This document shows, piece by piece, positions 1-16,546 of a DNA stretch of 64,000 nucleotides. Origin of the DNA: Polyangiaceae bacterium (GTDB taxonomy: Bacteria; Myxococcota_A; Polyangia; Polyangiales; Polyangiaceae). Position 1 is the stretch's first letter, and the number at the start of each line of letters is the position of its first letter. Where the stretch lies: the NCBI GenBank assembly GCA_033763455.1, contig JANRKO010000050.1, positions 1 through 64,000 on the forward strand, in the 5' to 3' direction. The notes under the pieces are model-generated. The model saw nothing but the letters and a program-made list of their open reading frames with translations, had not been told where the DNA came from and did no database searches. Made by a program: the position numbers and the translations under genes.

Positions 1-1
1 T

Positions 2-2176
2 GAGCTACTCGATGACCAGCGCTTCTCGCGCAACGTGCTCCCGTCCGAGGAACAGCTCGCCCGGGTGATGGTACGCCGTCTCAAGAGCGACCTCGTCGAC
101 GCCAAGGGCAAGAGGCTCTACCCGGTGCGCCGCCTCGAAGCGCTGAACGTCGAGTACACCGCCGAGGAGCGCGAGGCCCGACAACTTCTCGAACAGTACA
201 TCGCGAGCCGCAAGAAGCAGGACGAGCGCGAAGGCGCCGCCTCGCACTTCGTCCACCAGCTTCTCCGCAAGCGCCTCGCGTCGTCACCCGCCGCCTTCAT
301 GGCGACGCTGGCGCGGCACACAGCGACCATTGAGGGCAAGGGCGAGGCTCGCCGGGGGTCCAACCTCGACGACCGCATCCTCAGGCGCGCGATCGCCAAG
401 ACCGAAGAGGACTACGCAGACGACGACACGCGCGAAGCCGCCGAGTCCGAGGCCGTGGAAGAGGCGAGCCGTCGCCTGCGACCGCTATCGGCCGAGAACA
501 AGAAGCTCCTCGGCCGCCTGCGCTCGTGGGCCGAGCAGGCGAGCCACAAGCCCGACTCGAAGGCGGCGGCGCTCCTGCGCTGGCTCGAAGAGAACCTGCG
601 GCCCAAGGACCAATGGTCCAACGCGCGCGTCATCCTCTTCACCGAGTACCGCGCGACACAGAAGTGGCTGCACGAGATCCTCGCCAGCCACGACCTCGGT
701 GGCGAGCGTCTCGCGCTGCTCTTCGGCGGCATGGACCCGAAGGAGCGCGAGACCATCAAGGCTGCGTTCCAGGCCGATCCGCGTGAATCGCCAGTGCGCA
801 TCCTGCTCGCGACCGACGCGGCCTCGGAAGGCATCGACCTTCAGAACCACTGCAACCTGCTGATTCACGTCGAGATCCCCTACAACCCGAACGTGATGGA
901 GCAGCGCAACGGCCGCGTCGACCGTCACGGGCAGAAGCAAAGCGAAGTCGTCATCTGGCATCCCGTCGACGCGAGCGGCGGCCGCGGCGACGACATCCTC
1001 CGCGCGCTCAAGAAGCTCGACTCGATGCGCGCCGACATGGGAAGCGTGAACCCCGTCATCGCTCCGCAGCTGCCTGCGCTTCTCGAAGGCCGCCGCCGCG
1101 AGCTCGACACTGGCCTCGCCGAGAAGCGCATCGAACGCGCCAGACGTTACGTGAAGGCCGAGCGTGAGCTGCGCGAGCGCATCGCCAAGCTGCACGAACG
1201 GCTGACGACGACCCGCACAGAGCAGCACCTCACGCCCGACCGCATCGAGCGCGTGGTGCGCGTCGCGCTGGCGCTCACCGACAAGCCCGACCTCACGCCC
1301 GCGAAGCTGGCCGACCTTCCCGATGCCCGAGTGTTCCAAATGCCCGCGCTCGCGGGCTCGTGGTCGCGATGCCTCGACGGGCTCGACCACCCGTACACGA
1401 AGCGCACCCGCCCCATCACCTTCGACCACGACGCCGCCAAGGGCCGCGACGACGTGGTGCTCGTCCACCTGAACCACCCGCTCGTGCAGATGAGCCTGCG
1501 GTTGCTGCGTGCCGAGGTGTGGGCGCGCGACGACGTGAAGAAGCTGAACCGCGTTACGGTGCGCACACTGCCCGACGCGAAGCTCGACGCGCCCGCCGCC
1601 CTCGTCGTCTCGCGCCTCGTCATCACTGGTGGCAACCACCATCGCCTGCACGAGGAGCTGACGGAAGCAGGCGGCTACCTGCGCGACGCTGGCTTCAAGC
1701 GCGAGGACGGCATCACCAAGCTGCGCGACTGGCTCGACTCGTCGGCACCGGGGACCATCGACGACTCGCTCTTCGATGCCCTTCGCACGCGGTTCACGAA
1801 GCACACTGAGGCGGTCCTGAGCGCCGTCACCACGCGCTCGAGGGATCGCCTCAAGGGTCTCGGGTCCACGATCGAAGCCCGCAAGCGCAAAGAGATCGAC
1901 GAGATGACCCAGCTCCTCGACGACCTCGCCAAGAACCTTGAGGCCGAGCTGAAGCGAGAGGAGCCGAAGCAGCTCTCGCTCTTCTCCGAGGACGAACGCA
2001 CGCAGCTGCGGCGCGACAGGCTCGCACTCGAAGCGCGCCTGCGCCGCATCCCCGAGGAGCGCGAACGAGAGCGCCTCACGATCGAAGAGCGCCACACCGG
2101 CCTCGTCGACCACACGTTCCCCGTCTCGGTGATCCTCCTGGTGCCCGAGTCACTCGCCACGCGGAGGAAGCAGTGA
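2..2176 (+). CDS. drmD: DISARM SNF2-like helicase DrmD (5' end outside window)
   Basis: Frame is open from base 2. SNF2 C-terminal helicase motifs: ILFTEY, LLATDAASEGIDLQ, EQRNGRVDRHGQ. Lies directly upstream of an adenine MTase, followed by drmA/B/C. Confidence 0.88.
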   Translation, partial: ELLDDQRFSRNVLPSEEQLARVMVRRLKSDLVDAKGKRLYPVRRLEALNVEYTAEEREARQLLEQYIASRKKQDEREGAASHFVHQLLRKRLASSPAAFMATLARHTATIEGKGEARRGSNLDDRILRRAIAKTEEDYADDDTREAAESEAVEEASRRLRPLSAENKKLLGRLRSWAEQASHKPDSKAAALLRWLEENLRPKDQWSNARVILFTEYRATQKWLHEILASHDLGGERLALLFGGMDPKERETIKAAFQADPRESPVRILLATDAASEGIDLQNHCNLLIHVEIPYNPNVMEQRNGRVDRHGQKQSEVVIWHPVDASGGRGDDILRALKKLDSMRADMGSVNPVIAPQLPALLEGRRRELDTGLAEKRIERARRYVKAERELRERIAKLHERLTTTRTEQHLTPDRIERVVRVALALTDKPDLTPAKLADLPDARVFQMPALAGSWSRCLDGLDHPYTKRTRPITFDHDAAKGRDDVVLVHLNHPLVQMSLRLLRAEVWARDDVKKLNRVTVRTLPDAKLDAPAALVVSRLVITGGNHHRLHEELTEAGGYLRDAGFKREDGITKLRDWLDSSAPGTIDDSLFDALRTRFTKHTEAVLSAVTTRSRDRLKGLGSTIEARKRKEIDEMTQLLDDLAKNLEAELKREEPKQLSLFSEDERTQLRRDRLALEARLRRIPEERERERLTIEERHTGLVDHTFPVSVILLVPESLATRRKQ

Positions 2177-5100
2177 GCGCCAAGCACGAGTGGCTGAACC
2201 TGCTCGAGGTCTCTGGCCCGTTCCTCGCGGTGCCCGTGCTCCGTGAGGTGTTCCCGCAGGGCCTCGAAGAGCTTGACTCCTCGCGCGCCAAGCGCCTGCA
2301 CAGCGCCTACGAGGAATGGCGTGACGCGGTCGATGGCGACGACGCCGACCGCGACAAGCTCCACGCCGCGTGGATTGACGAGGTGCTGCGTACGGCGCTT
2401 GAGGCTGACGACGAGTTGCTCAAGGCCGGCAAGGACGTTCCGGCGTCGATCGTCGAGCTGCCCGAACACGACACCGCGATCGCGCCCGAGCTCGTGTTCG
2501 TCGACCCGACGCATGGCGCGGCGGTGCTTGCGCCGGTTCACGTCTTCCCGCCCGACACCGACCTCTCGGCGTCGATGAAGTTCGGAGGGCTGTCGTGCTC
2601 GCCGGGCGACCGCATGGCCTTCCACCTTCGCGCGCTGAACGTGCCGTTCGGAATCGTGACGAACGGCGAGCGTTGGATGCTCGTCCACGCGCCCACCGGT
2701 GAGGTGGCGACCTTCGCGAGCTGGTACGCGCGTATCTGGGGCCAGGAGCCCGCCACGCTGCGCTCGTTCACGTCGCTGCTCGGCGTGCGCCGCTTTTTCG
2801 CGCCCGCGCAGGACCGGCTTCCGGCGCTCTTCGAGCGCTCGCTGAAGCACCAGGACGAGGTCACCGACGCCCTCGGCGATCAGGTCCGGCGCGCCATCGA
2901 GGTGTTGGTGCAGGCGCTCGACCGCGCCGACCAGGATCGCAATCGCGAGCTGCTGCGCGACGTGAAGCCTCAGGAGCTGTACGAGGCCGGGCTCACCGTG
3001 ATGATGCGGCTCGTGTTCCTCCTCGCCGCCGAGGAGCGCGGGCTCTTGCTCTTGGGTGAGCCCCGCTACGACTCGTTCTACGCGGTGTCGACACTGCGCA
3101 TGCAGCTTCGGGCCGAGAGCGACGAGATCCTGGAACGACGGCGCGCATCGTGGTCGCGGTTGCTCGCTGTGTTCCGCGCGGTCTTCAGTGGCATCGACCA
3201 CCCGACGTTGCGTCTGCCCGCGATGGGTGGCTCGCTCTTCGACCCCGACCGCTTTCCGTTCCTCGAAGGACGGCTGAAGGGCACGTCCTGGCGGCAGCAT
3301 CGCGCCGAGCCGCTGCCCATCGACGACCGCACGGTGCTGCTGCTGCTCGAAGCCATCCAGACCTTCGAGGGGCGCACGCTCTCGTACCGTGCCCTCGACG
3401 TCGAGCAGATCGGTCACGTCTACGAGGGTCTGCTCGAACGCACCGTCTCGCGCGTCGAGGACGTGACGCTGGAGCTCGAAGCGGGCGCGCAGGCCAAGGA
3501 CGCGCGCGTCACGCTCGGCGAGCTGGAGTCGGCGCGCCTCGACGGCCAAGCCGCCGTCACGAGCCTGCTCGTCGAGCGTTCGAAGCGCTCGGAGTCGGCC
3601 ATCAAGAACGCCCTGGGCGCCGAGGTCGAGCCCCAGCAGGACGCGCGCCTGCTCTCTGCATGTCGCGGCGATGTGAAGCTCCGCGATCGCCTCGCGCCCT
3701 ACGTCCGCCTGATGCGCACCGACCCGTGGGGCTACCCGCTGGTGCATCCGAAGGGCGCGTTCGTCGTGGTACTCGGCGCCGATCGCCGCGAGACCGGCAC
3801 GCACTACACGCCCAAGAGTCTCACCGAGCGCATCGTCGAGGAGACGCTCACGCCGCTCGTCTACGACGGCCCCGCGAAGGGTGCACCGCGCGCTGAATGG
3901 AAGCTGAAGACTCCCGAGCAGCTCCTCGACCTAAAGGTCTGCGATCCCGCGATGGGATCGGGCGCGTTCCTCGTGCAGGCGTGTCGCTTCCTGAGCGCGC
4001 GCCTCGTCGAGGCTTGGGCCATCGAGGAGGCGGCCGGGCGTGTGGTCGACCTCACGGGACAGGTCCACGAGCCGCGCACCAGCGTCGAGTGCATGCCGCC
4101 CAGCGTAGAGGCGCGCGCCGAGAACGCGCGGCGCATCGTGGCAGAGCGATGCCTCTACGGCGTCGACCTGAATCCGCTGGCCGTCGAGCTGGCGAAGCTC
4201 TCGCTGTGGCTGGTGACGCTATCGAAGGGCCGCCCCTTCGGGTTTCTCGACCACAACCTCCGTCGCGGCGACAGCCTGCTCGGCATCAGCCGCCTCGAGC
4301 AGCTCACGGAGCTGTCGATGGCACCGAAGGAGCAGACGCAAGGACGCCTCTTCGGCAGGACCGTTCGGCAATCCGTCGAGGAGGCGTTGGCGATCCGCCT
4401 TCAGCTTCGCGAGATGCCCATCCGCGACATTCGCGACGTGGAGGCAATGGCCAGTCTCGACGCCGCAGCGCGAGCAAAGGTGACGACGTCCGAGAGTATT
4501 GCCGACGCCTTCATGGGCCTCGTCTTCGCCACCGAGAGCGCGCAAGATCTTGAGCGCCGGTTGGCCACCCTTGGACCGGATGCAGACGGCGCGGTTCAGG
4601 GCAACGCGACCGCGCTCCGGTCGCTCGAGCGCTTCGCTGACGACTCGCTGAGAGAGGGCTTCCTGCACGAACGCAAGGGGCTTCCGTTCCACTGGCCGCT
4701 CGAATTCCCTGAGGTTTTTCTCCGCGAGCATCCTGGCTTCGATGCATTTGTCGGCAACCCGCCTTTCCTGGGGAACAGACTCTGGAAGGGAACGCAGGGG
4801 CCTTCGCTACAGCGGATCGTGCAGCTCGTCCTGGGAGTGGCACCCGGGAAGATCGACCTCTCAGTGGCGTTCCATCGCCGCGCGGCTGAACTGCTGCGTG
4901 TCGACGGCGGGTACGGGCTCCTTGCGACGAACAACATCGCAGAAGGAAGTGCTGTAGCTGTTGGGCTCGAGCAGATCGCTGGGCAGGGTGACTTCTATTT
5001 CACGCGAAAGGGGCTGCCATGGCCGGGCTCTGCGTCGACGGTCGTGGCGATTGTGTGCTTCGCCAAGGGTCAGTGGAGCGGGCAACGACTTTGTGACGGC

Positions 5101-6258
5101 GTAGCGTGTGAGCGGATTGGCCCCCGGCTTGAACCGGAGGTCGCGGATGGCTGGGAGCCGAAACCCCTGCGCGATGCCGTGTTCGCCTTCGAAGGCGTCA
5201 ACAACAGCAAGGGACTCGCCTTCGTCGTCACTGACCAGCACCCGTGGTTCGACCGTCTCAAGTCGGAGAGAAACTCGCTACTACGCCCCTACGTGACCGG
5301 GGACGACATCACCAGCGGTGCTCTCACCCGGCTTGAGCGGTGGGCACTCGACATAGCGGACATGTCGTTGGAGGCCGTCGCCAAGCACTGGCCCGTCGCG
5401 CATGCGTTTCTTACTGAAGTGGTCGAGCCAACTCGAACGCCGCAGGCGCTCAAGAGCTACAAGGGACTGATCGACCGCTGGTGGCAGTTCTGGAATCACC
5501 GTGCCGAACAGATGCGTCGACTCAGGAAACAGTCGGAGTTCATCGCCTTCTGCAAGGCCGCGAAGTACCCGGTCTGCATGCTCGCTCCAACGGAGTGGCT
5601 CTACACCAACAAGGTGATCTTGGTGGAGAACGCTCGACCGGATCTCCTTGCGATTTGCCTGAGCTCGCCGTTTCGCGACTGGGTGTCGCGCTTTTCCCTC
5701 CAGAGTCTCGGCGGCGACAACAATACCTTGTCGCTGTCGATCACCGAGGCGTTCAGCACATTTCCACAGCCAATCGCCACCACCAGTGAATCGGGAATCG
5801 ACGCAGCAGCCAAGTTCCAAGAGGTGCTGACGTCTTGGAGCACGGAGAATCGCAAGGGCATGACCGATGCGATGAATGCGGTGAACTCTCCGGCTGCAAC
5901 GGAAGATGCCATCCAGGAGCTTCGTCAGCTCTTGGAGAAGATCGATGGCGCGGTGAAGGCTGCCTACGGCTGGACCGACATTGACCTCTCGCACGACTTC
6001 CACATAGAGGTGGATGCCGAGGGCGCACCGGTCAATCGCCACGGGACTTCGGCTGCCGCGAGAGGTCGCGTGCTGGCGGCGCTACTGAAGCTCAACCGCG
6101 ATCGCCACGAGCAGGAACGGTCGAGGCCGCCGGCGAGCACCAAGCGCGCCGCTCCGGTCGCTGACGGAGACTTCGCACTCACGTCGCCCGAATCGACCTC
6201 GAAGACCAAGGCCGCCTCCCCGGCACAGAAGGCCAAAACACGGAGAACTAGCCGATGA
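2173..6258 (+). CDS. drmMI: DISARM N6-adenine DNA methyltransferase DrmMI (type IIG/Eco57I-like architecture)
   Basis: GTHYTP, motif I DPAMGSGAF, LYGVDLN and motif IV GNPPF, plus a C-terminal TRD-like region. GTG start overlaps the drmD stop (GTGA). Confidence 0.88.
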   Translation: MSAKHEWLNLLEVSGPFLAVPVLREVFPQGLEELDSSRAKRLHSAYEEWRDAVDGDDADRDKLHAAWIDEVLRTALEADDELLKAGKDVPASIVELPEHDTAIAPELVFVDPTHGAAVLAPVHVFPPDTDLSASMKFGGLSCSPGDRMAFHLRALNVPFGIVTNGERWMLVHAPTGEVATFASWYARIWGQEPATLRSFTSLLGVRRFFAPAQDRLPALFERSLKHQDEVTDALGDQVRRAIEVLVQALDRADQDRNRELLRDVKPQELYEAGLTVMMRLVFLLAAEERGLLLLGEPRYDSFYAVSTLRMQLRAESDEILERRRASWSRLLAVFRAVFSGIDHPTLRLPAMGGSLFDPDRFPFLEGRLKGTSWRQHRAEPLPIDDRTVLLLLEAIQTFEGRTLSYRALDVEQIGHVYEGLLERTVSRVEDVTLELEAGAQAKDARVTLGELESARLDGQAAVTSLLVERSKRSESAIKNALGAEVEPQQDARLLSACRGDVKLRDRLAPYVRLMRTDPWGYPLVHPKGAFVVVLGADRRETGTHYTPKSLTERIVEETLTPLVYDGPAKGAPRAEWKLKTPEQLLDLKVCDPAMGSGAFLVQACRFLSARLVEAWAIEEAAGRVVDLTGQVHEPRTSVECMPPSVEARAENARRIVAERCLYGVDLNPLAVELAKLSLWLVTLSKGRPFGFLDHNLRRGDSLLGISRLEQLTELSMAPKEQTQGRLFGRTVRQSVEEALAIRLQLREMPIRDIRDVEAMASLDAAARAKVTTSESIADAFMGLVFATESAQDLERRLATLGPDADGAVQGNATALRSLERFADDSLREGFLHERKGLPFHWPLEFPEVFLREHPGFDAFVGNPPFLGNRLWKGTQGPSLQRIVQLVLGVAPGKIDLSVAFHRRAAELLRVDGGYGLLATNNIAEGSAVAVGLEQIAGQGDFYFTRKGLPWPGSASTVVAIVCFAKGQWSGQRLCDGVACERIGPRLEPEVADGWEPKPLRDAVFAFEGVNNSKGLAFVVTDQHPWFDRLKSERNSLLRPYVTGDDITSGALTRLERWALDIADMSLEAVAKHWPVAHAFLTEVVEPTRTPQALKSYKGLIDRWWQFWNHRAEQMRRLRKQSEFIAFCKAAKYPVCMLAPTEWLYTNKVILVENARPDLLAICLSSPFRDWVSRFSLQSLGGDNNTLSLSITEAFSTFPQPIATTSESGIDAAAKFQEVLTSWSTENRKGMTDAMNAVNSPAATEDAIQELRQLLEKIDGAVKAAYGWTDIDLSHDFHIEVDAEGAPVNRHGTSAAARGRVLAALLKLNRDRHEQERSRPPASTKRAAPVADGDFALTSPESTSKTKAASPAQKAKTRRTSR

Positions 6259-7676
6259 AACCAAGCACAGACAAGGCACAGGCTAGTCCGACCAAGCAGT
6301 TCTTCGTGTCGATGCTGACGCGCGACATCAGCCTCGACGACGCCATCCTCGACCTCCTCGACAACTGCCTCGACGGCGCGATGCGCATCGCTGATGGCGA
6401 CAAGGTCGACTACGCCCAGCATTTCGTGAAGATCAAGCTGGCCAAGGACGAGTTCTCCATCGAGGACAACTGCGGTGGAATCCCGCGCGATGTCGCCATC
6501 AACTACGCCTTCAAGATGGGCCGCGAGCCCGACGACGACCGCGACTCCGACACCGAGACAATCGGCATGTACGGGGTCGGCATGAAGCGCGCGATTTTCA
6601 AGATGGGGAGGAACGCGCTGGTGCGGTCGCGCCACGGGGATGACACGTTCGAGGTGCCCATCACGTCCGAGTGGCTCGAGGCGAAGAACTGGGACCCGCT
6701 GCCGATCAACGAGCCGACGAGGGCGAACGAGAAGCTGCCGCAGCCGGGCACGAGGATCGTCGTTAGGGACCTCTACGAGGGCGTCGCCCGACACTTCGAG
6801 AACGACGCGTTCGAGAACAAAGTCCGCACTGCCATCTCGGAACACTTCACGATGTTCCTCCAGTGGGGCTTAAAGGTGGAACTGAACGGCCAGCCGGTGG
6901 AGCCGGTGCGCGTCGAGGTGCTCGTCTCGAAGCGCGAGGATGGCCCCGCGCCGTTCGTGTTCCGCAAGACCATCGACGGCGTTGTCGTCTCGATCACCGT
7001 CGGTCGCAACACCAACCGTTCCCTTGGAAACGAGGAAGACGACGACGCGGGCTTCGAGCGGGACCGCTCGTCGGCCACTGCCGGATGGACGGTCCTCTGC
7101 AACGATCGCGCGGTCATCGTCGGCGACAAGAGCCGTCTCACGGGTTGGGGCGATGGCATTCCGCTCTACCACCCGCAGTTCGCCATCATCACGGGCATCA
7201 TCGAGTTCCGCTCGAAGCGCGCCGACAAGCTTCCCGTGACGACGACGAAGCGCGCACTCGACACGTCGTCGAACGTCTGGCTCGAGTCCCTCGTGAAGAT
7301 GAAAGAGGGCATGCGGGTTTGGATCGACTACACGAACCAGTGGAAGAACCAGGCGGGCGCTGAGCAACAGCAGGCTCGCCACTGGGAGGACGCCCGGCCG
7401 ATGCCCCTCAGCAAGGCGATCGAAGCCGTCGCTCAGCGCAAGGCCACGAAGAAGTCGGACGACGACGGCGTCGAGTTCAACCCGAAGAAGAACAAGGTTC
7501 TCCCCGAGCCCCCGAACAAGACGCCGTCATCTCGGCGGGTCACGTTCTCGAAACCTGCCGAAGAGGTCCGCCTCGTTGGCAAAGCGCTGCTTGACGACGA
7601 GAACGCAAGGCCTGGTGACGTCGGTGAAAAGGCGTTCGATCTGGCTCTGGCCAAGGCCAAGAAGCGGGGCGGCTGA
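6255..7676 (+). CDS. MORC-like GHKL (HATPase_c) ATPase with putative S5-fold domain
   Basis: GHKL motifs ILDLLDNCLDG, IEDNCGGI, IGMYGVGMKRA and PGTRI. Downstream GWTVLCNDRAVI resembles the MORC S5-domain signature. ATG overlaps the drmMI stop (ATGA). Confidence 0.82.
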   Translation: MKPSTDKAQASPTKQFFVSMLTRDISLDDAILDLLDNCLDGAMRIADGDKVDYAQHFVKIKLAKDEFSIEDNCGGIPRDVAINYAFKMGREPDDDRDSDTETIGMYGVGMKRAIFKMGRNALVRSRHGDDTFEVPITSEWLEAKNWDPLPINEPTRANEKLPQPGTRIVVRDLYEGVARHFENDAFENKVRTAISEHFTMFLQWGLKVELNGQPVEPVRVEVLVSKREDGPAPFVFRKTIDGVVVSITVGRNTNRSLGNEEDDDAGFERDRSSATAGWTVLCNDRAVIVGDKSRLTGWGDGIPLYHPQFAIITGIIEFRSKRADKLPVTTTKRALDTSSNVWLESLVKMKEGMRVWIDYTNQWKNQAGAEQQQARHWEDARPMPLSKAIEAVAQRKATKKSDDDGVEFNPKKNKVLPEPPNKTPSSRRVTFSKPAEEVRLVGKALLDDENARPGDVGEKAFDLALAKAKKRGG

Positions 7677-7678
7677 CC

Positions 7679-8674
7679 ATGGGCGCTGGTTCTTCACTGC
7701 CGTATAGGTTGCGGCCGAACAAGGCCGTGGACCGCGAGCTGTTTCTGTCGCTCTTGATGCGGGTGGCGCCGAAGCTGGCGCTCGAGAAGTACCACTACGT
7801 CGGGCTCGGCGGACCGTTCCTCGAAGACTTCCGCTTGGTTCACGGGCGGCTTGGCATCGCCAAGATGACGTGCATCGAGACGGAGGAGCAGGTGCACAAG
7901 CGCCAAATCTTCAATCGGCCGATCGCCTCTATCGAGTGCGTTCACAAGACCCTTGAGGACTACCTGGACGAGACCGACTTCGAAACGCCCGCCATCATCT
8001 GGTTCGACTACACCGAGCCCAAAGGCATTACGACGCAGATCGAGCGCTTCGCACGCACCATCGGCACCGTGCCGATCGGCAGCATCCTCCGCGTGACGCT
8101 CAACGCGAACCCCACCTCCCTCGGGAAGCCAGACGCCAAGGACCTCTCCGTCGAGGTCGAGGGCGAGGCGTCGGAGGATCGCGCGGTGAAGCCGACGATC
8201 CAGGAGTGGCGGCTCGCACGCTTCAAGGAGCGGATGGGCGGGTTGTTCCCCAGCGGCCTGACTACCGAGGGAATGACCTTCAAGGCGTACGGGCCGAGCC
8301 TCCTGCGCGCCCTGAAGCTGGCCGTCGACAACGAGGTGTTGAGCTTCCGTGATCGCCGCATCGTGTGGGCGCTCGCCACGCACTACGCCGATGGCCAGGC
8401 GATGGTCACCGCCGCGTTGGTGGTCGCCCCGAATGCCGACACGAGCATCGATGAGCTCGTGAAGGGCTGGGAGTTCTACACGACGACCGATGCTCCGCAC
8501 CGGCTCGACCTCCCGGCGCTCTCGACGTTGGAGAGGTTGACGATGGAGTCGAACGACGACGCCAAGACGCGGCTCGGCTTCGCTCTTCCGAATTCGGACA
8601 TGGGGACCGACCCCTTCGAGGTCTTCAAGAAATTCTACCGTATCTACCCGCACTTCTCGCGGGTTGAGCTGTAG
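7679..8674 (+). CDS. Uncharacterised class I SAM-dependent methyltransferase-fold protein
   Basis: Rossmann-MTase-like pattern: YHYVGLGG (motif I), MTCIE (acidic end of strand 2), IIWFDY (motif IV). Starts 2 nt after the ATPase stop. The ORF is clear; the function is inferred. Confidence 0.6.
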   Translation: MGAGSSLPYRLRPNKAVDRELFLSLLMRVAPKLALEKYHYVGLGGPFLEDFRLVHGRLGIAKMTCIETEEQVHKRQIFNRPIASIECVHKTLEDYLDETDFETPAIIWFDYTEPKGITTQIERFARTIGTVPIGSILRVTLNANPTSLGKPDAKDLSVEVEGEASEDRAVKPTIQEWRLARFKERMGGLFPSGLTTEGMTFKAYGPSLLRALKLAVDNEVLSFRDRRIVWALATHYADGQAMVTAALVVAPNADTSIDELVKGWEFYTTTDAPHRLDLPALSTLERLTMESNDDAKTRLGFALPNSDMGTDPFEVFKKFYRIYPHFSRVEL

Positions 8675-8689
8675 CGAGAGGAGCAACGC

Positions 8690-11600
8690 ATGACGACGAC
8701 CACCGCACCGAACGCACAGGCATGGCTTGCCAGGGAGGCAACGTCGATCGGCCCGTTCGTCGTTCGGCTCGACGGTGATCGTGTCGGCTTCGGAGCGCTC
8801 GCGACGGGCCACTGGGTCGTCGTAGTCGACGCGGCGGGCGCACTGAAGCGTGTGGGGCGCATCCTCCGCATCCGCGCCGACCTCGAAGCGACCACGCTCT
8901 ACTTCGACAAGTTGCACACGGTGACAGTGGCGGGCTCGCTCGCCGACATCGGGCTGACGCTTCCCACCGGGCTCGTCACGCGGCTGCGCCCCGAGGACCT
9001 GTCAGCGGTTCTCGCACGCGACGGCGTGTTGTCGTCGGACGATGTTCCGCTCATCCAAGACGCCGCCTACGTGCGGGATCTGCTCGAGCTGGCGACGCGC
9101 GATGACCTGCTTGGGCCCGCCAACGGTCCCGAGGAGCTGGTCGTCGACATGAGCGTTCGCGACCGCTACCTCGTCGGCAAGCTCGCGCCGCGCGCTCCGG
9201 GTGACGCGACGACGGCGAGCGAGGTCGAACCCGCAGCGGCCTCGGACGAAGAGAACGACTCGGCGCAAGAGAACGACGCCCCGCTCCACGAACCGGGTGC
9301 CGAGTTCAACCGCGCGAGCGGGCGTGTCGAGCCCGACGAAGACGCGCTCGACGAGATCGACACGACCAACAACCAGTCGCTCGTGCCGTCGAGTCTGGGC
9401 CTCACGTTCTGCGTCGGTCCCGACGTGAAGACGCTCGACGTCACCGCACGCTGGGGCAGCTATGCGCGTGTTCCGAAGGAGGAACACGAGTACACGCGCC
9501 CGCGGAAGAACCGCGAGACGGGCGAAGTCCAAGAGACGAAGGTGAAGGTCTGGCGCCGCTCGCCGCGCGGTGGGCTCGTGACGCTCACGCTTGAGGACGG
9601 CCCCATCAAGCCACTCGCACCCGACAGCGAGCAGGACGAGGTTCGCATCCAGGGAGCCGTGCGCACCAACGCCAAGGGCGAACGCCTCGTCACGCTGTTC
9701 CTGGTCAACGACCAGCGCGAGCCCGAGACGAATCGCGACAGCGCCTGGCTTTTTCAGCCCGAGCTGAGCGTGAAGGGCGCGGGTAAGGCAGCCGGGACGC
9801 CGGTGTTCCTGCGTCGCCCAAGCAACGACATCGTCGTGGACGACGCCGAGCGCGACCACCTCGGGCTCATCTACCGGCGCCGCGTGGAGTTCGCCGTGGG
9901 TCACGGCGTTGCCGTCCACGCCGAGACGCCCGACGACGACCTGACGCGCGCCGTCGAGGTCCGCACCGAAGTCATCCCGAGCTTCGAGGTGCCCTTCACC
10001 GAGACGCCGGGCCTCGATCCCGACGATCGCCCCGCGATGAAGAAGATGGTCGAGCGGGGCTGGCTCGACATGCAATCGCTCGCGGATCTCGACAAGGCCG
10101 AGCTCGAAGAGGCGCTGAAGACGCTCGTCGACGACTACGCCGCGTGGATTGGCGACCAGCGCGCGCGCGTCGGCAAGGAGATCAAGGGTTACGACGCCCC
10201 GGCCAACGAGGCCCTCGACCGTTGCAAGACCACCCTCGAGCGCCTGCGCGCAGGGTTGAAGGTGCTGCTCTCCGACCCGAAGGCGCTCGACGCATTCCGC
10301 TTTGCCAACCGCGCGATGGCCCGCCAGCGCGTCCGAGGCATCTACGCACTGAAGCGTCGTCGCGGCGAGGAGCTGACCTTCGACTCCGTCGACGTGCGGA
10401 AGAACCGCTCGTGGCGCCCGTTCCAGCTCGCCTTCCTGCTTCTGTCGATCCCGTCGCTCGCCGACCCGAAGCACCCGGACCGCACGAGCCCCGCCGAAGC
10501 TTTCGCCGACCTACTCTGGTTCCCCACGGGCGGTGGCAAGACCGAGGCGTACTTGGGCGTTGCCGCCTTCGCGATGGGCATCCGACGCTTGCAGGGCGTC
10601 GTGGAGAACCTCGACGGTGGCCGCGGGCTCACCGTCATCATGCGCTACACGCTGCGCCTCCTGACGCTGCAGCAGTTCCAGCGGGCCGCGACGCTGCTTT
10701 GCGCGATGGAGATCATCCGCAGCGGGGATGTCGCTAAGTGGGGCGCGGAACCGTTCACGCTCGGGCTGTGGGTCGGCAACAAGGTGACGCCGGGGACCAC
10801 CGAGACCTCGCACCAAGCGATCGAGGCCATCCGCGACAAGGACCGCAACCGTGCCGGCATCGCGTCGCCCGCGCAGCTCACGAGCTGCCCGTGGTGCGGC
10901 ACCGAGATTCAGCCCGGACGCGACATCGAGGTCGACAAGACCGCTGGGCGGACCGCCATCTACTGCGGCGACAAGCTCTCGCAGTGCGAGTTCAGCAAGA
11001 CGAAATCGAGCGGCAACGCGCACCCCGGGCTGCCGGTGAAGCTCGTCGACGAGGAGATCTACCACCGGCCTCCGACCATGATGATCGCCACCGTCGACAA
11101 GTTCGCGATGATGGCGTGGCGCGCCGAGGTGCGGACGCTCTTCGGCAACGTGCGTGAAGAGTGCGAGCGCCACGGACTGCTCTGGCCGGGCCATGACTGC
11201 GGCGGCGGCCACAAGGCGCGGAAGCCTCACCCCGGTGCGAAGGTCAAAGCGGTGCGCGGTGTGCGCCCGCCGGACCTCATCATTCAAGACGAGTTCCATC
11301 TGATCAGCGGACCGCTCGGAACGATGGTTGGTCTGTACGAGACCGCCGTCGACGACCTCTGCTCGTGGAAGATCGGGAAGACCAAGGTGCGCCCGAAGGT
11401 GGTCGCATCGACCGCAACCGTCCGACGCGCGGCCGACCAGGTGCGGAACGTCTTCATGCGGCGCCTCGCGATCTTCCCGCCCAAGGCGCTCGACGTGGAA
11501 GATGACTTTTTCTCGGTGCAGCGCGCGGTCGAGAGCAAGCCGGGGCGCCGGTACATGGGCATCTGCTCGCCGGGCAGTTCACGTCCTGCCGTGCTGATCC

Positions 11601-12697
11601 GCACGTACACCGCGTTCCTCACGGCGGCGCAGGGACTCTTCGATGCCTTCGGGAAGGTGGCCGACCCGTACATGACGATGGTCGGCTACTTCAACTCACT
11701 GCGCGAGCTCGGCGGCATGAAGCGCCTCGCGGAAGACGACGTCCAGACCCGTTCGTACCGCGTGAAGATGAGCCTCGTGCAGCGGCCTGGGCTCGAGCAG
11801 CGGAGCGTCTCGACCATCGCCGAGCTGACCTCGCGCGTGAGCAACGCCGACATCCCGAAGTACCTCGACCAGCTTGAGATTCCCTTCGACGCGGCGTACG
11901 ACACCAATGCGGCGCGGCTTGCGAAGAACCACCGTGCTCCCGACGTTCCTCGACCCATCGACGTCGTGCTCGCGACCAACATGCTTTCGGTCGGTGTCGA
12001 TGTCAGCCGTCTGGGTCTCATGGTCGTGAACGGGCAGCCGAAGGGAGCCGCGGAGTATATCCAGGCCACCAGCCGCGTTGGTCGCACAGAAAGGTCTCCA
12101 GGTCTTGTCGCAGCGGTACTCACGTGGGCGCGGCCGCGTGACCTCTCGCACTACGAGACCTTCGAGCATTACCACGCGACGTTCTACCAACACGTCGAGG
12201 CGCAGTCGGTCACGCCGTTCTCTCCACGCGCGATGGACCGTGGGCTCACCGGGACGATGCTCGCCGTCATGCGGAACCGTTTCGAGCCTTTCGCGCCGAA
12301 CCCCGGTGCCGGTGCGCTGACGAGCCCGAGCCTCCCGGCCATGACGTCCACCGTTGACTCGGTCACCGAGCGCACGTGGGAGGTCACCGAGGATTCCGCG
12401 AAGAAGAACCTCGCGACCGCCGAGCTGAAGAGCCGCGCCGACGAGTGGGCGAAGGAGGCGGCGGTGCCAGGGCGCATGCTCGTCTACCAGAAGTACGGCG
12501 CGGGCCCGACCGCGTACGCGCTACTCGAATCCCCGGGCATCAAGCCGTGGTCGACGTGGACTGTGCCCATGTCGATGCGCGAGGTCGAGCCCGGAGTGAA
12601 TCTCGTGATGGAGGACGATCGCTCGAACCAAGACCCGGTCTGGCGCCCGCGCCCCACGCCCGAGGATGAAGCGACGGATGTGGAGGAGTCGCCATGA
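8690..12697 (+). CDS. drmA: DISARM helicase DrmA with N-terminal extension
   Basis: Walker A PTGGGKT, RYTLRLLTLQQFQR, DEFH, ATNMLSVGVDV and QATSRVGR. RBS GAGGAG lies just upstream. Confidence 0.92.
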   Translation: MTTTTAPNAQAWLAREATSIGPFVVRLDGDRVGFGALATGHWVVVVDAAGALKRVGRILRIRADLEATTLYFDKLHTVTVAGSLADIGLTLPTGLVTRLRPEDLSAVLARDGVLSSDDVPLIQDAAYVRDLLELATRDDLLGPANGPEELVVDMSVRDRYLVGKLAPRAPGDATTASEVEPAAASDEENDSAQENDAPLHEPGAEFNRASGRVEPDEDALDEIDTTNNQSLVPSSLGLTFCVGPDVKTLDVTARWGSYARVPKEEHEYTRPRKNRETGEVQETKVKVWRRSPRGGLVTLTLEDGPIKPLAPDSEQDEVRIQGAVRTNAKGERLVTLFLVNDQREPETNRDSAWLFQPELSVKGAGKAAGTPVFLRRPSNDIVVDDAERDHLGLIYRRRVEFAVGHGVAVHAETPDDDLTRAVEVRTEVIPSFEVPFTETPGLDPDDRPAMKKMVERGWLDMQSLADLDKAELEEALKTLVDDYAAWIGDQRARVGKEIKGYDAPANEALDRCKTTLERLRAGLKVLLSDPKALDAFRFANRAMARQRVRGIYALKRRRGEELTFDSVDVRKNRSWRPFQLAFLLLSIPSLADPKHPDRTSPAEAFADLLWFPTGGGKTEAYLGVAAFAMGIRRLQGVVENLDGGRGLTVIMRYTLRLLTLQQFQRAATLLCAMEIIRSGDVAKWGAEPFTLGLWVGNKVTPGTTETSHQAIEAIRDKDRNRAGIASPAQLTSCPWCGTEIQPGRDIEVDKTAGRTAIYCGDKLSQCEFSKTKSSGNAHPGLPVKLVDEEIYHRPPTMMIATVDKFAMMAWRAEVRTLFGNVREECERHGLLWPGHDCGGGHKARKPHPGAKVKAVRGVRPPDLIIQDEFHLISGPLGTMVGLYETAVDDLCSWKIGKTKVRPKVVASTATVRRAADQVRNVFMRRLAIFPPKALDVEDDFFSVQRAVESKPGRRYMGICSPGSSRPAVLIRTYTAFLTAAQGLFDAFGKVADPYMTMVGYFNSLRELGGMKRLAEDDVQTRSYRVKMSLVQRPGLEQRSVSTIAELTSRVSNADIPKYLDQLEIPFDAAYDTNAARLAKNHRAPDVPRPIDVVLATNMLSVGVDVSRLGLMVVNGQPKGAAEYIQATSRVGRTERSPGLVAAVLTWARPRDLSHYETFEHYHATFYQHVEAQSVTPFSPRAMDRGLTGTMLAVMRNRFEPFAPNPGAGALTSPSLPAMTSTVDSVTERTWEVTEDSAKKNLATAELKSRADEWAKEAAVPGRMLVYQKYGAGPTAYALLESPGIKPWSTWTVPMSMREVEPGVNLVMEDDRSNQDPVWRPRPTPEDEATDVEESP

Positions 12698-14535
12698 GTA
12701 AGACCCCGGTGGGCGAAGTCCGCCCGAGTCAGCTCCTCTGGACCTACGGACCCGGCGCGCTGATCGATCTCCCGAACCTTTCCGTCATCACGATGGGCAT
12801 CGACCGTTGGGAGCTTGGGCGCTGTCAGCCGATTCAGGAGGCGCGACTTCTCACGAACGTGCGCCGCGTGCTCGGCGACCAGGTCGAGTCGCTGCGCATG
12901 CCGCCGCTGACCGATAGCGACGTCGTCGACCCGTTCTCGGCCGAGGCGCTCGTAGGTGTTCCGGTGAAGCCGTTCCCCCGCTGGATGCGATGCGTGAAGT
13001 GCGGTCTGCTCTCGCCATTCGACGCGGGTCTGTTCGAGCTGAAGGCGAACCGCTATCGGCCAGAGAGGACGTGCTTCGTCCACAAGGGCTGCACCGGCTC
13101 GCGCGGCGACCAAAAGCCTCGCGCCGCCGACTCGGTGCCCGCACGCTTCCTGCTCGCGTGCCGCGAGGGGCACCTCGATGACTTCCCGTGGCACTGGTTC
13201 GTCCACGGCGGGCCGAGTGGCTGCAAGGGCACGCTGCGCTTCTTCGAGAGCGGCGCCTCGCTCCAGACCGAGAACCTGTGGGTGCGCTGCGATTCGTGCA
13301 GCGGCGCCAAGAGCATGGCGCAGGCTTTTGGTCAGGCAGGTAAGGATAACCTGCCGGGCTGTCGTGGGAGGCATCCGCACCTCAACAAGTTCGAGGACGG
13401 CTGCGCCGAAGTCCCGCGCGCCATCCTGCTCGGCGCAACGAACGGCTGGTTCCCGGTGACGCTCTCGGTGCTGGCCATCCCGCAGACGGGGAGCCCGCTC
13501 GCGCAGCTCGTCGGCGATGGCTGGACGTTCTTCGAGGACGTCGAGAGCGCCGTAGAAGTAGCGGCCGTCGTGAAGACACTGAAGAAGTCGGCGCAGCTCC
13601 CCGGCATCGACGCCTTCACGGGCGACCAGGTGTGGGAAGCCATCCAGGCCCACCGCGGTGGCACGGTGGGCGACGAGGACCTCGATCTGAAGGGGCCGGA
13701 GTGGGACGTGCTTACATCTCCGACGCCACCGACCGACTACCCGCACTTCATGAGCAAGAGGGCGGATGTACCCAAGGGCTTCGAGAAACATATCTCGCGC
13801 GTGCTGCTCCTGGAGCGGCTGCGTGAGGTGAATGCGCTCCTTGGCTTCACGCGCGTCGAGTCGCCAAATGAAGGTGCCGGAGCGGAACGTGCTCTACGCG
13901 CGCCCATTGGTCGTACCGCTCCTAACTGGGTGCCCGCCACCCAGGTCCACGGCGAAGGCATTTTCCTGCAGTTCTCGGAAAACGCGCTCGTGACCTGGGC
14001 TGCGGGACAGGGACCGCGCGCGCACGAAGCCGAGTTTCGTCGAGGACATCGTGGCTGGCGTGCCCGACGCGGCCTCGATCCCGATCCCGGCTTCCCCGGC
14101 ATGAGGTTCGCGCTACTCCACACCATCGCGCACTTGCTCATCCGCGAGCTCGCGCTCGATTGCGGCTACAACGCGGCGAGCATCCGGGAGCGAGTCTACG
14201 CCGACACCGAAGGCGGCAAGTCGCAGGCGGGCATCTTGATCTACACGGCAGCGGCCGACTCCGACGGCACGCTCGGCGGGCTCGTCGACCTCGGCAAGCC
14301 CGAGAACCTCGGAAGGCTGCTGCGCCAAGCGCTCGACCGCGCGAAGATCTGCGCCTCCGATCCGCTGTGCGCCGAGCACAACCCAAGGACCGACTCGTCG
14401 CTGCATGCCGCCTCGTGCCACGCGTGCTCGTTCGTCTCCGAGACTTCGTGCGAGTGCGGCAACCGCTATCTCGATCGCGCGCTCGTCATCCCGACGCTGC
14501 AAGTCAACGACGCGGCCTTCTTCGCAGGGATCTGA
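12694..14535 (+). CDS. drmB: DISARM DUF1998 protein DrmB
   Basis: N-terminal VRPSQLLWTYGPGALIDLP, several Cys pairs, and a C-terminal DUF1998 motif CASDPLCAEH...CHACSFVSETSCECGN. Overlaps the drmA stop. Confidence 0.92.
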   Translation: MSKTPVGEVRPSQLLWTYGPGALIDLPNLSVITMGIDRWELGRCQPIQEARLLTNVRRVLGDQVESLRMPPLTDSDVVDPFSAEALVGVPVKPFPRWMRCVKCGLLSPFDAGLFELKANRYRPERTCFVHKGCTGSRGDQKPRAADSVPARFLLACREGHLDDFPWHWFVHGGPSGCKGTLRFFESGASLQTENLWVRCDSCSGAKSMAQAFGQAGKDNLPGCRGRHPHLNKFEDGCAEVPRAILLGATNGWFPVTLSVLAIPQTGSPLAQLVGDGWTFFEDVESAVEVAAVVKTLKKSAQLPGIDAFTGDQVWEAIQAHRGGTVGDEDLDLKGPEWDVLTSPTPPTDYPHFMSKRADVPKGFEKHISRVLLLERLREVNALLGFTRVESPNEGAGAERALRAPIGRTAPNWVPATQVHGEGIFLQFSENALVTWAAGQGPRAHEAEFRRGHRGWRARRGLDPDPGFPGMRFALLHTIAHLLIRELALDCGYNAASIRERVYADTEGGKSQAGILIYTAAADSDGTLGGLVDLGKPENLGRLLRQALDRAKICASDPLCAEHNPRTDSSLHAASCHACSFVSETSCECGNRYLDRALVIPTLQVNDAAFFAGI

Positions 14536-15296
14536 TGCAGGCGCTCCTCAATGCGGTCGTAGACCTCGTAGCTCTCGTCTCTCCAGCGAAGGTGCGCACG
14601 GTCGCATCGGCGCTGCGCGTGCTCGCGAACCCCGGCGCGGCTCCGAGCGCGAGCACGCTCGCCGACACGCCTGCAGCGCGCGCTGCCGTCGGGCGCGTCG
14701 TCGCAGCGTGGGGGCAAGCGCAGGCCAGCGGCGACGAAGTCGCGGGTATGCTCCTCGGCGCATCAGAAGCCCGACTGCGCGTCGAACGCGAGCTGAGCGT
14801 CGAGCTGGTGTGGACCGGTCCGACGACGCGCTTCGTCCCCACGCGCAGGACCGAGCAGGTGCTGCTGGATCTCATTGCAAGTGCCACCAAGGACTTCTTC
14901 CTCGTGAGCTTCGTCGCGTACGACGTCCCCAGCGTCGTCGCCGCGCTGAACGACGCTGCAAGCCGTGGCGTTCGCCTGCGCATCCTGCTCGAGGCTTCGA
15001 CGAGCCACGGCGGCACTCTGAACTACGACCCGACGGCCACGATGCGTCTGCGTGTTCCGTCGGCGGAGCTCTTCTCGTGGAAGGAGAAGCCCGAGCCCTT
15101 CGTTGACGGCAAGGTCCACGCGAAGGTCGCGGTGGTCGATGGCGCGCGCGCCTTCATCACGAGCGCCAACTTAACCGGTCACGCGCTCGAGAAGAACATG
15201 GAGGCCGGCGTGCTTATCAACGGTGGTCCGGTCCCAAAGACTCTGAGCGACCACCTGCAGGCGCTCATCGACGTGAGGGTCATCGACCATGTTTGA
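14535..15296 (+). CDS. drmC: DISARM phospholipase D-family nuclease DrmC
   Basis: ELVWTGP, a single HKD motif HAKVAVVD, and SANLT...NMEAG. ATG overlaps the drmB stop (TGATG). Confidence 0.9.
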   Translation: MQALLNAVVDLVALVSPAKVRTVASALRVLANPGAAPSASTLADTPAARAAVGRVVAAWGQAQASGDEVAGMLLGASEARLRVERELSVELVWTGPTTRFVPTRRTEQVLLDLIASATKDFFLVSFVAYDVPSVVAALNDAASRGVRLRILLEASTSHGGTLNYDPTATMRLRVPSAELFSWKEKPEPFVDGKVHAKVAVVDGARAFITSANLTGHALEKNMEAGVLINGGPVPKTLSDHLQALIDVRVIDHV

Positions 15297-15385
15297 AGGC
15301 GTCCAGAGGCCATCCATTCAAGTAAGCAATCAATGCGGCCACTGCCTCCGCCCTTCGCGGAGCACACGAGCATCTATTCTACCAT

Positions 15386-16546
15386 TCACCTTCGCCACCC
15401 CCCCCAACTTATCCCTGCCAACTTCCGATGCACGGCCGGGAGTGGAAGCTCCGCGAGCTCCTTCCGGCTACACCAGCGAACCACGCGCGGTCGCTCTGTA
15501 GCTGCCACATTTCCCCTGCGCCCTTCGTGTCCCGCCCGTACTCCGCTTCCACCAGAGGTAAGCTGTAGCGTGCAGTAATGCGCCTCTAAAGTAATCCGAT
15601 ACCGTGTAACACTATGCTTCAGCGTCGCCGCGTGCTCACCCACTTGAAGCTTGCCCCCCAGCTGTTCCCGCCCAAGCCGAACCAACGCTTCTGTCGCGGT
15701 CTCCTTGCTCTTTCGTTCAACGTTAGGAAACTGCCACATTCCCGCCCAGCGTGGCGCATCCTCGGGAACTTGATACACCAAGAATCGCCCGCGCCGTTGA
15801 ATCAGCGCCGCCACCATAGCCACCTGTGTCACGGCTTGGCGCGCTGGAAGCTCAGGTAACGTTTGAGTGAGGCCTCGTTTTCGTGCTTCGCACAGAGCAT
15901 GCAGGGGGCAGGTGAGGCACAGCGGCTTCTGTGGAGTGCACACGAGCGCCCCAAACTCCATCAACGCTTGATTGGAGTCGCGGGCGCGGCCAGGAGCGAT
16001 GAGTTGTTCGGCCAATTTCCAAATCTCACTCTTTAACGGCGCGCGTGTTGGGTCCCCACGCAAACCAAACAAACGTGTAATCACTCGGACCACGTTGCCG
16101 TCTACCAGCGGCACGGCTTGGTTGAAGGCGATGCTGGCGATGGCTCCGGCCGAATAAGGACCAATGCCGGGTAACTTCAGCAACTCTTCAACACTCTCGG
16201 GGATCGAGCCTTTATGTTCTGCCACCACGGCGCGCGCACCCGCAAGTAAACGTCGCGCGCGTGAGTAGTATCCCAGCCCCTGCCACAGCTTGAGCACGTC
16301 TGCTTCCTCAGCGGACGCAAGCTCCCGTATGTTCGGGAACCGATTGAGCCAGCGCGCGTAATACGGTCGGACCGTTTCCACTTGGGTTTGCTGGAGCATC
16401 ACTTCGCTAACCCAGATGGCGTAGGGGTCAGAAGTGCGACGCCAGGGCAGGTCCCGCCGATGTGCGGTGTACCAGCGCAAAAGCTCGGCGGCTAAGTGCG
16501 TGGGCTTTGGCGCTGAATTCTCGTTGTTTTTCGGGGAACGAGGCAT
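15386..16546 (-). CDS. mutY: A/G-specific adenine glycosylase
   Basis: RDLPWR, WVSEVMLQQT, GLGYYSRA, HhH LPGIGPYSA, VDGNV, 4Fe-4S motif CTPQKPLCLTCPLHALC and a C-terminal NUDIX-like domain. Confidence 0.95.
   Translation of the reverse strand: MPRSPKNNENSAPKPTHLAAELLRWYTAHRRDLPWRRTSDPYAIWVSEVMLQQTQVETVRPYYARWLNRFPNIRELASAEEADVLKLWQGLGYYSRARRLLAGARAVVAEHKGSIPESVEELLKLPGIGPYSAGAIASIAFNQAVPLVDGNVVRVITRLFGLRGDPTRAPLKSEIWKLAEQLIAPGRARDSNQALMEFGALVCTPQKPLCLTCPLHALCEARKRGLTQTLPELPARQAVTQVAMVAALIQRRGRFLVYQVPEDAPRWAGMWQFPNVERKSKETATEALVRLGREQLGGKLQVGEHAATLKHSVTRYRITLEAHYCTLQLTSGGSGVRAGHEGRRGNVAATERPRVVRWCSRKELAELPLPAVHRKLAGISWGGWRR

Follow-up and report, generated by a model that had tools for sequence, protein, structure and literature searches.

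In this work, we present a comparative genomic analysis of two adjacent genes, encoding a MORC-type ATPase (positions 6255 to 7676) and a methyltransferase-fold protein of family PF20553 (Methyltransf_35; 7679 to 8674), which lie inside a class I DISARM operon of a Polyangiaceae bacterium. The window, that is the whole stretch of DNA analysed, comprises positions 1 to 64,000 of contig JANRKO010000050.1 (assembly GCA_033763455.1). The pair is real, conserved and unnamed. It represents a variant of the MORC-linked restriction systems that have been predicted, and one lineage of it resides in DISARM. We propose, with a probability of roughly 0.6, that it is the restriction (effector) half of a mobile module licensed by 5-methylcytosine (5mC) and composed of a C5 cytosine methylase (Dcm), with or without Vsr, the ATPase and the PF20553 protein, one lineage of which was captured by DISARM. 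That the pair and Dcm together serve in defence is the likely part of this proposal, and the exact chemistry assigned to the PF20553 effector is its tentative part. The genomic comparison shows that the linkage to Dcm is strong, that the trio of Dcm, ATPase and PF20553 protein is located in anti-phage hotspots, and that the pair is exchanged as a unit.

Linkage of the pair to a cytosine methylase and to anti-phage hotspots

Close homologs were collected from species-representative genomes (52 loci, 64–97% identity) and distant ones from metagenome and viral contigs (144 loci), with the use of two narrower alignments; the distant set includes the best 80 of 121 metagenome matches, is biased by the search patterns and was collapsed to 86 groups at 90% identity. 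The ATPase gene is located directly upstream of the PF20553 gene in all 80 distant loci with upstream DNA, and among the 50 close loci examined, 49 have the two genes spaced by −4 to +14 nt. The pair is therefore almost inseparable, its linkage being obligate by genomics. Dcm is found no more than 1.5 kb from the pair in 58 of the 86 distant groups, in all four possible arrangements, 35 of them convergent. These counts run counter to a possibility raised in the initial annotation, made from the window sequence alone, that the homologs are linked neither to each other nor to defence loci. The remaining distant groups, with no Dcm call, comprise 18 that are too short, 6 in DISARM and 4 that are well flanked, one of which (L114) does have Dcm just upstream. 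A universal association of the pair with Dcm is rejected by the other three, L103, L122 and L128. Their pairs sit among CHAT/TPR, OmpA or NRPS (nonribosomal peptide synthetase) genes, and in the tree these loci cluster with others having no Dcm in view.

The close loci give a similar picture: Dcm lies within about 1.5 kb in all four non-DISARM loci with flanks, and the commonest unlabelled neighbours are a C5 cytosine methylase and Vsr. The latter is present in 16 of the 86 distant groups. Outside DISARM no helicase recurs beside the trio, and no conserved third, HNH-like gene recurs beside the pair. Beyond Dcm, six trio loci (L066, L074, L076, L081, L102 and L117) have another GHKL protein, of about 600 aa and cut in L076. 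Loci L140 and L207 hold a separate lineage, in which the pair is followed by Vsr and by a gene for an SNF2 helicase; L207 has a drmMI-like gene as well. Here the pair may have become associated a second time with a system of helicase and methylase.

Three mobile-element positions are occupied by the trio alone: the portal-replication slot of P2 in Escherichia coli EC77, a lambdoid moron slot and the accessory end of Pf phage PfAC20. Of 5426 complete E. coli genomes, 256 have a match to the trio, and in 49 the match covers 80% or more of the trio; all three genes lie under the match in 17 of the 20 E. coli rows listed. Matches also comprise 1522 representative proteins. The same trio (WP_021517197/8) stands in nine rows of the P2-hotspot contents of the Rousset 2022 catalogue (PMC9122126, Table S5A). 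Unlike the systems tested there, it is only listed in the covered part of this source, a term search found no mention of it in the main text, and the HATPase entries among the tested systems are other systems. The trio was also noticed in an O157:H7 prophage (L285, 3700–7199), where gene order, in the part of the record covered, suggests that its Dcm is Z2389/ECs1953. This methylase reportedly protects NotI sites.

The ATPase and the PF20553 protein

All four GHKL motifs read in the first gene by the initial annotation (DNCLD, DNCGG, GMYGVGMKR and GT) are near-invariant in 70 homologs, where N37, D40, D71, G75, G104/107/109, K111 and G165 are invariant in 70/70. Motif I carries Asp33 in 69 of the 70, at a position usually taken by the catalytic Glu. 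The homolog alignment also keeps the conserved basic residues K332 and R333 of the S5 domain invariant. The MORC-specific S5 signature GhXhhpXXRhl corresponds to G277-WTVLCND-R285-AV (G in 70/70, R in 68/70), which was matched by eye to the motif printed by Iyer 2008, with no tree including that paper's sequences. A structure model obtained from a 70-row alignment (predicted local distance difference test, pLDDT, 88.8) aligns with Morc3 over residues 7–361 (Z 19.9, root-mean-square deviation, rmsd, 3.7, 296 residues aligned) and with SMCHD1, MORC2 and MutL over similar ranges. The fold matches are tied, with Z of 19.9 for Morc3, 19.4 for GRP94, 19.3 for SMCHD1 and 19.2 for MORC2, and MutL reaches 16.1. 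Judging from these motifs and the model, the first gene is predicted to encode an intact MORC-type GHKL+S5 ATPase. Its last approximately 100 residues match no Pfam family, and residues 370–473 were barely covered by the fold searches.

The fold shared with MutL leaves room for a helper of Dcm, in which a MutL-like clamp and a second methylase would accelerate or extend the methylation or, with Vsr, handle 5mC by-products. Cooperation of MutL and Vsr is described in the covered parts of the survey of Iyer, Abhiman and Aravind (2008, PMC2292703), and Vsr does occur in the 16 distant groups mentioned above. It is however missing from most Dcm-linked loci, the slots occupied by the trio hold anti-phage systems in related phages, and five DISARM loci bearing DrmMII, the Dcm of DISARM, come from genomes with no PF20553 match, hence we regard the helper role as very improbable.

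The PF20553 gene is under purifying selection, with a ratio of nonsynonymous to synonymous substitution rates (dN/dS) of 0.07–0.16 against seven close homologs. The model of its product (112 rows, pLDDT 93.8) has a class I S-adenosylmethionine (SAM)-methyltransferase fold. The best fold match is Trm1 (Foldseek E-value 4e-7; VIA-align Z 14.8, rmsd 3.7, 216 residues aligned), which lies within 1 Z of other nucleic-acid methylases. With Trm1 (tRNA m2,2G26) and RsmD/RlmI-like enzymes the protein shares a class I Rossmann fold, a glycine loop, an acidic residue of strand 2 and an Asp at the end of strand 4. It differs from Trm1 in that their identity is about 12%, no TRM family is found among the 20 Pfam families matched by the 112 members at E-values up to 0.1, and Z is tied with that of other methylases. 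A sequence search of the PDB with the protein and its profile gave no matches. Alignment by hhalign to 10 TIGR04474 (TcmP) sequences yielded a probability of 0.5% and an E-value of 0.11, with WFDY placed against FLDPY; the hhalign results gave no significant kinship to TcmP, to the methylase region of DrmMI or to Dcm. Look-alikes in the ESM Atlas are mostly phage clusters (score 0.90–0.93) and the PP_RS20740 family PF28273, which are possible distant relatives.

Nine residues are invariant in the family (K15, R19, Y40, R75, W108, D110, T140, Y236 and E285), with Asp110, at the end of strand 4, kept in 112 of 112 members. The end of strand 4 is the motif IV position of amino-methyltransferases. 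The initial annotation was right that the protein has GLGG (residues 42–45) and neither NPPY/F nor PC; with an invariant Asp110 at the place of motif IV, however, the absence of any catalytic motif is not established. Motif IV of N6A/N4C methyltransferases, (D/N/S)PP(Y/F), was not found among the members, in which strand 4 ends with W-(L/F)-D-(Y/F)-x-x-P and, of that motif, only the Asp is invariant. Also conserved are the N-terminal YxLRxNKxxDR, the glycine loop, the acidic residue 67, W-L-D110-Y and Y236-x-D238; by sequence, these features resemble a SAM pocket that is intact and may include a catalytic Asp. A second methylation activity, as put forward in the initial annotation, is plausible from the modelled fold. 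Prediction of the complex of the ATPase with the PF20553 protein returned a score of 0.00 and the verdict 'no answer', which counts neither for nor against binding.

The same pocket could instead belong to a sensor of SAM or S-adenosylhomocysteine, the pair acting as a guard that watches the methylase and sets off abortive infection when SAM is depleted or when an anti-restriction protein of a phage inhibits Dcm. SAM-binding positions are conserved, yet there is no full NPPY/DPPY motif; no nuclease was found in the pair; unrelated Dcm families and a swapped DrmMI tail are tolerated, as described below; and the Asp in place of Glu in motif I (69/70) may slow hydrolysis. A guard, however, would be expected to have adenine methylases as partners too, and the partner seen outside DISARM is a C5 methylase. 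No toxic effector domain was identified either, and we consider this explanation quite unlikely.

The pair inside DISARM and its exchange

The DISARM locus of the window consists of the following features, all on the forward strand:

2 to 2176, forward strand: drmD, SNF2-like helicase, 5' part cut by the contig start (NF038317, 818 bits, cut-off 610)
2173 to 6258, forward strand: drmMI, adenine methyltransferase of 1361 aa (PADLOC DrmMI, 1585 bits)
4720 to 6228, forward strand: exchangeable C-terminal part of drmMI, including the target-recognition region (joint in 3/4 runs; MmeI_TRD match at residues 1025–1198 below cut-off; GC dip to 0.61)
6255 to 7676, forward strand: MORC-type GHKL+S5 ATPase, 473 aa (PF13589, 39.8 bits, cut-off 25)
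7679 to 8674, forward strand: PF20553 (Methyltransf_35) class I SAM-methyltransferase-fold protein, 331 aa (PF20553, 271.9 bits)
8678 to 8683, forward strand: GAGGAG ribosome-binding site of drmA (sequence)
8690 to 12697, forward strand: drmA helicase (NF038325, 1461 bits)
12694 to 14535, forward strand: drmB (NF038324, 731 bits)
14535 to 15296, forward strand: drmC, PLD-family protein (NF038319, 251 bits)

DrmD, DrmA, DrmB and DrmC pass the NCBIfam cut-offs and DrmMI was called by PADLOC. The placement of the pair between drmMI and drmA of class I DISARM, reported in the initial annotation, is accurate down to the junctions: the ATPase reading frame starts in an ATGA overlapping the drmMI stop, 2 nt separate it from the PF20553 gene, and 15 nt with GAGGAG lie between the end of the latter (8674) and the drmA ATG at 8690. 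A search for sigma-70-like promoters in 5000–9200 found none against 0.3 expected, which is weak evidence. RNA runs contained only 6–7% of the sequence words.

Base 1 of the window is base 1 of its contig and falls inside drmD, so the upstream cytosine methylase of this locus lies outside the window. Another contig of the same genome, C46, has a Dcm of DrmMII type ahead of the 5' part of drmD (4209–6867); its overlap with the window start is 93.2% identical (28 mismatches in 413), and it could represent an allelic variant or another copy. Since a similarly divergent allele is also present there in sludge assemblies, C46 is probably the left end of the locus type of the window. The pair itself is carried by independent sludge assemblies at about 97% nucleotide identity. 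The GC content of the DISARM island (1–15300) is 0.61–0.69 per kb, higher than the genome mean (0.59), and the edge of the island adjoins a mutY-like gene (15386–16546, annotated by reading of open reading frames), which is consistent with recent acquisition.

Among the 52 close loci, 47 have DISARM genes: in 43 the pair is preceded by drmMI and followed by drmA, in 3 the upstream side is cut and in one the pair comes after drmC; these DISARM-embedded loci span seven named phyla. Where the region upstream of drmD is visible in pair-bearing DISARM, it holds Dcm in 31 loci and Vsr at the locus edge in 3 (34/34), and in the other loci Dcm is elsewhere nearby (2) or out of view (11). The host-phylum control, a sample of 401 genomes, has drmD over the cut-off in 64 and PF20553 in 5, three of the latter in DISARM (the window's genome included) and two as trios with Dcm outside DISARM; the pair is thus in DISARM in only 3 of 64 drmD-bearing genomes. 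For a pair-free control, 59 of 73 pair-free drmD matches were examined, giving counts and not tests, since kin are not independent. The pair is found in 0/59 and an upstream Dcm in 5/59, all five among the 8 best-scoring drmD and from the genomes lacking a PF20553 match referred to above; 3 loci have no upstream gene.

The drmMI-drmA junction is a general insertion hotspot. An insert longer than 500 bp occurs there in 19 of 22 pair-free loci in which both genes were seen, and the 37 proteins scanned include GmrSD, an AAA ATPase with HNH, DUF2357-PD-(D/E)xK, Fic, a kinase and IS200. Inserts with no Pfam match, among them those of L213 (459, 243 and 443 aa), L226 (376 and 268 aa) and L236 (240 and 300 aa) and others in L213–L262, are candidates for further defence genes. 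In pair-bearing DISARM loci, AspBHI-like and Mrr-like nuclease genes recur as extra inserts, located after the PF20553 gene in L012 and L024 and between drmD and drmMI in L008, L016, L025 and L028.

Phylogeny and identity comparisons bear on the exchange of the pair. In a midpoint-rooted FastTree phylogeny (91 rows, 20 of them from the 52 close loci) the DISARM-embedded pairs form one clade of 27 rows with support 100, of which 21 are in DISARM and 6 are not. Dcms located upstream of drmD also form one clade, of 36 rows, that additionally holds four Dcms of stand-alone trios and five pair-free ones, in a quick tree with long-branch warnings from which no direction of transfer was drawn. Among 24 complete DISARM loci the identity matrices of the ATPase and PF20553 correlate at 0.77, those of the pair and the Drm core at 0.31–0.45 and those within the core at 0.83–0.96. 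In L001 identity is about 90% for the pair and about 55% for the core, and in L043 and L044 it is about 70% for the pair and 94–96% for DrmA. Five hand-picked comparisons show PF20553 proteins 85–91% identical that adjoin Dcms only 25–40% identical, with different target-recognition regions, and judged by these sequences the pair does not appear to have a fixed cognate methylase of one specificity. Related sludge and bioreactor loci that keep the pair have drmMI 4720–6228 replaced (3/4 runs), which would represent specificity switching by domain exchange. Given this tail swap and the unrelated Dcms, the pair is not bound to the specificity of DrmMI or to a single Dcm family.

The initial annotation had offered two readings of the locus. 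In the first, an expanded DISARM subtype, the MORC clamp and the PF20553 protein would work with the DrmD and DrmA helicases and DrmMII, much as MORC proteins of other restriction operons do with SF2 helicases. It draws some support from one pair clade (support 100, holding all DISARM-embedded pairs of the tree) being fixed at the junction across seven phyla, from the 47 of 52 close homologs in DISARM, 43 of them at drmMI-drmA, and from the SF2 (superfamily 2) helicases seen in about 70% of MORC neighbourhoods in the covered parts of Iyer 2008 (PMC2292703). The six clade members with no DISARM, the 3 of 64 drmD genomes, the many unrelated inserts accepted by the junction and the decoupled identities of pair and core in L001, L043 and L044 all weigh against it, and we find it unlikely. 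In particular, a dedicated DISARM subunit is rejected by the 3/64 genomes, the 0/59 pair-free loci and the weak pair-core correlation; neither protein matches any PADLOC or NCBIfam family, including the profiles of DrmA, DrmB, DrmC, DrmD, DrmMI and DrmMII. The second reading, an independent two-gene system using the junction as a hotspot, is for the most part correct: it holds as to the hotspot (19/22) and as to the distant homologs, which lie mostly outside DISARM. It does not hold as to a system of two genes, the pair being tied to Dcm/DrmMII and often Vsr.

One DISARM locus has a different occupant of the slot. In L212, a DISARM with Dcm-Vsr (DrmMII), the drmMI-drmA junction contains a 663-aa GHKL protein (4969–6960) whose tail is of E..D..ExK type by eye, with PD-(D/E)xK-family matches below cut-off (E-values 0.015 and 0.021); it belongs to PHROG 6203, with function unassigned. 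Relatives are carried by 9 plasmids, where Dcm abuts in at least 4 of the 9 (three overlap the Dcm gene and a fourth follows one directly), and none further was found in 400 other genomes or in viral contigs. The one plasmid Dcm tested is 73% identical to the Dcm of the stand-alone trio L033 and 50–61% to the DrmMII-clade rows listed, the next rows being at 33% or less. By this kinship, one Dcm family serves either a probable GHKL-nuclease or the MORC ATPase with the PF20553 protein. PF20553 as the effector is best suggested by this replacement, which rests on few loci.

Proposed mechanism and relation to known systems

In the mechanism that we favour, Dcm would mark the host chromosome with 5mC, and a MORC dimer would clamp, in an ATP-dependent manner, DNA without the mark. 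Its specificity would come from the methylation state or from Dcm and not from a fixed site of its own. The clamp would then license the PF20553 protein, standing where related systems have a nuclease, which most likely methylates a nucleobase amine with SAM. The target would be invader DNA, where the mark would be a blocking lesion, or a host nucleic acid, where it would arrest growth. One lineage would have been captured by DrmMII-carrying class I DISARM, with the methylase before drmD and the pair in the drmMI-drmA hotspot. The trio is probably a restriction-like defence with no recognisable DNA-cutting enzyme. A more specific version, in which the methyltransferase is the weapon, so that MORC reads 5mC-less DNA with no target sequence of its own and a Trm1-like enzyme writes a blocking methyl mark, silencing and not cutting, appears doubtful to us.

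Several points weigh against the restriction-module proposal. Defence by the pair is predicted from genomic context, and the substrate of PF20553 could not be read from the fold searches. As the initial annotation had stated, no nuclease domain is recognisable in either protein by Pfam, PADLOC or fold search, the last of which barely covered residues 370–473 of the ATPase and 273–331 of the PF20553 protein. L103, L122 and L128 are well flanked and keep an intact pair with no adjacent Dcm. The window locus has no Dcm of its own on its contig, and its overlap with C46 is just 93.2% identical. Dcm tracks the Drm core (0.60–0.64) better than the pair (0.35–0.47) in the 24 DISARM loci, and this correlation of about 0.6 with the core counts against tight co-evolution of Dcm and pair. 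DrmMII-bearing DISARM with no GHKL gene at the junction exists (L213, L218), and the six-gene class I DISARM of Serratia works without the pair in the covered parts of its descriptions (bioRxiv 10.1101/2021.12.28.474362, 10.1101/2021.12.26.474123). Finally, the slot replacement is one DISARM locus, with nuclease matches below cut-off.

The closest described relatives are the MORC-Dcm-Vsr restriction operons with helicases or nucleases predicted by Iyer, Abhiman and Aravind (2008, PMC2292703). With these prokaryotic MORC/paraMORC operons the trio shares the GHKL+S5 protein with MORC signature, the adjoining Dcm, often Vsr, and the patchy lateral spread. It differs from them in having no SF2 helicase outside DISARM (inside, DrmA and DrmD are SF2 helicases), no recognisable nuclease and, as a fixed partner, a SAM-methyltransferase-fold protein, which the covered parts of that paper do not describe. 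The paraMORC3-type GHKL-nuclease fusions (Iyer 2008; L212, L286) share with the trio the adjoining Dcm clade and, in the case of L212, the DISARM slot; their single chain includes a probable PD-(D/E)xK tail, whereas here a shorter ATPase is followed by PF20553. The window operon has the order drmD-drmMI-drmA-drmB-drmC of class I DISARM of Serratia sp. SCBI, and the upstream Dcm scores best to PADLOC DrmMII. Unlike that system, whose covered description has six genes including DrmMII and no pair, the present one contains a pair that matches no Drm profile and is found mostly outside DISARM.

Kinship to BsuMI, a multi-subunit type II system of Bacillus subtilis with two C5 methylases and YdiR, YdiS and YdjA, was considered separately. 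YdjA is a GHKL protein of about 465 aa and YdiR has about 313 aa, sizes like those of the pair. The covered part of PMC11311917 gives CTCGAG as the recognition site of BsuMI and counts two methylases and three restriction genes in it; Serratia DrmMII, in the covered part of its description, methylates MTCGAK. The name BsuMI is nevertheless absent among the 120 best of 1164 matches, no PADLOC restriction profile matches either protein, the HNH-like third gene does not recur beside the pair, and PF20553 is found in 0 of 14 control genomes, a set in which the membership of B. subtilis is not established. We hold this kinship to be the least probable of the alternatives. BsuMI left aside, the pair matches no described system in PADLOC or NCBIfam, a possibility which the initial annotation had wanted checked. 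The PHROGs families of the pair, 20521 and 19983, have no function assigned, and no paper naming PF20553/Methyltransf_35 or describing the trio was found, in a search that had subscription journals, bioRxiv supplements and part of the Rousset supplement outside its scope. The covered part of a 2026 preprint (Tiamat) still calls the role of bacterial MORC in restriction proposed. New here are the near-identical pairs combined with unrelated Dcm families, and the GHKL protein with a probable nuclease tail that fills the same slot with the same Dcm clade.

The trio is common, resides in proven anti-phage hotspots and is missed by PADLOC and NCBIfam, and the drmMI-drmA junction is a place to mine for further defence genes. 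The results suggest that DrmMII in class I DISARM serves, at least in part, a nested system as its modification half. The trio also makes it possible to ask directly in what way cytosine methylation is read by a MORC clamp, and if a nuclease can be replaced by a methyltransferase fold. If the methyltransferase is indeed the weapon, this would explain the apparently extra DrmMII of some class I DISARM operons and would provide a bacterial precedent for eukaryotic silencing by MORC and cytosine methylation.

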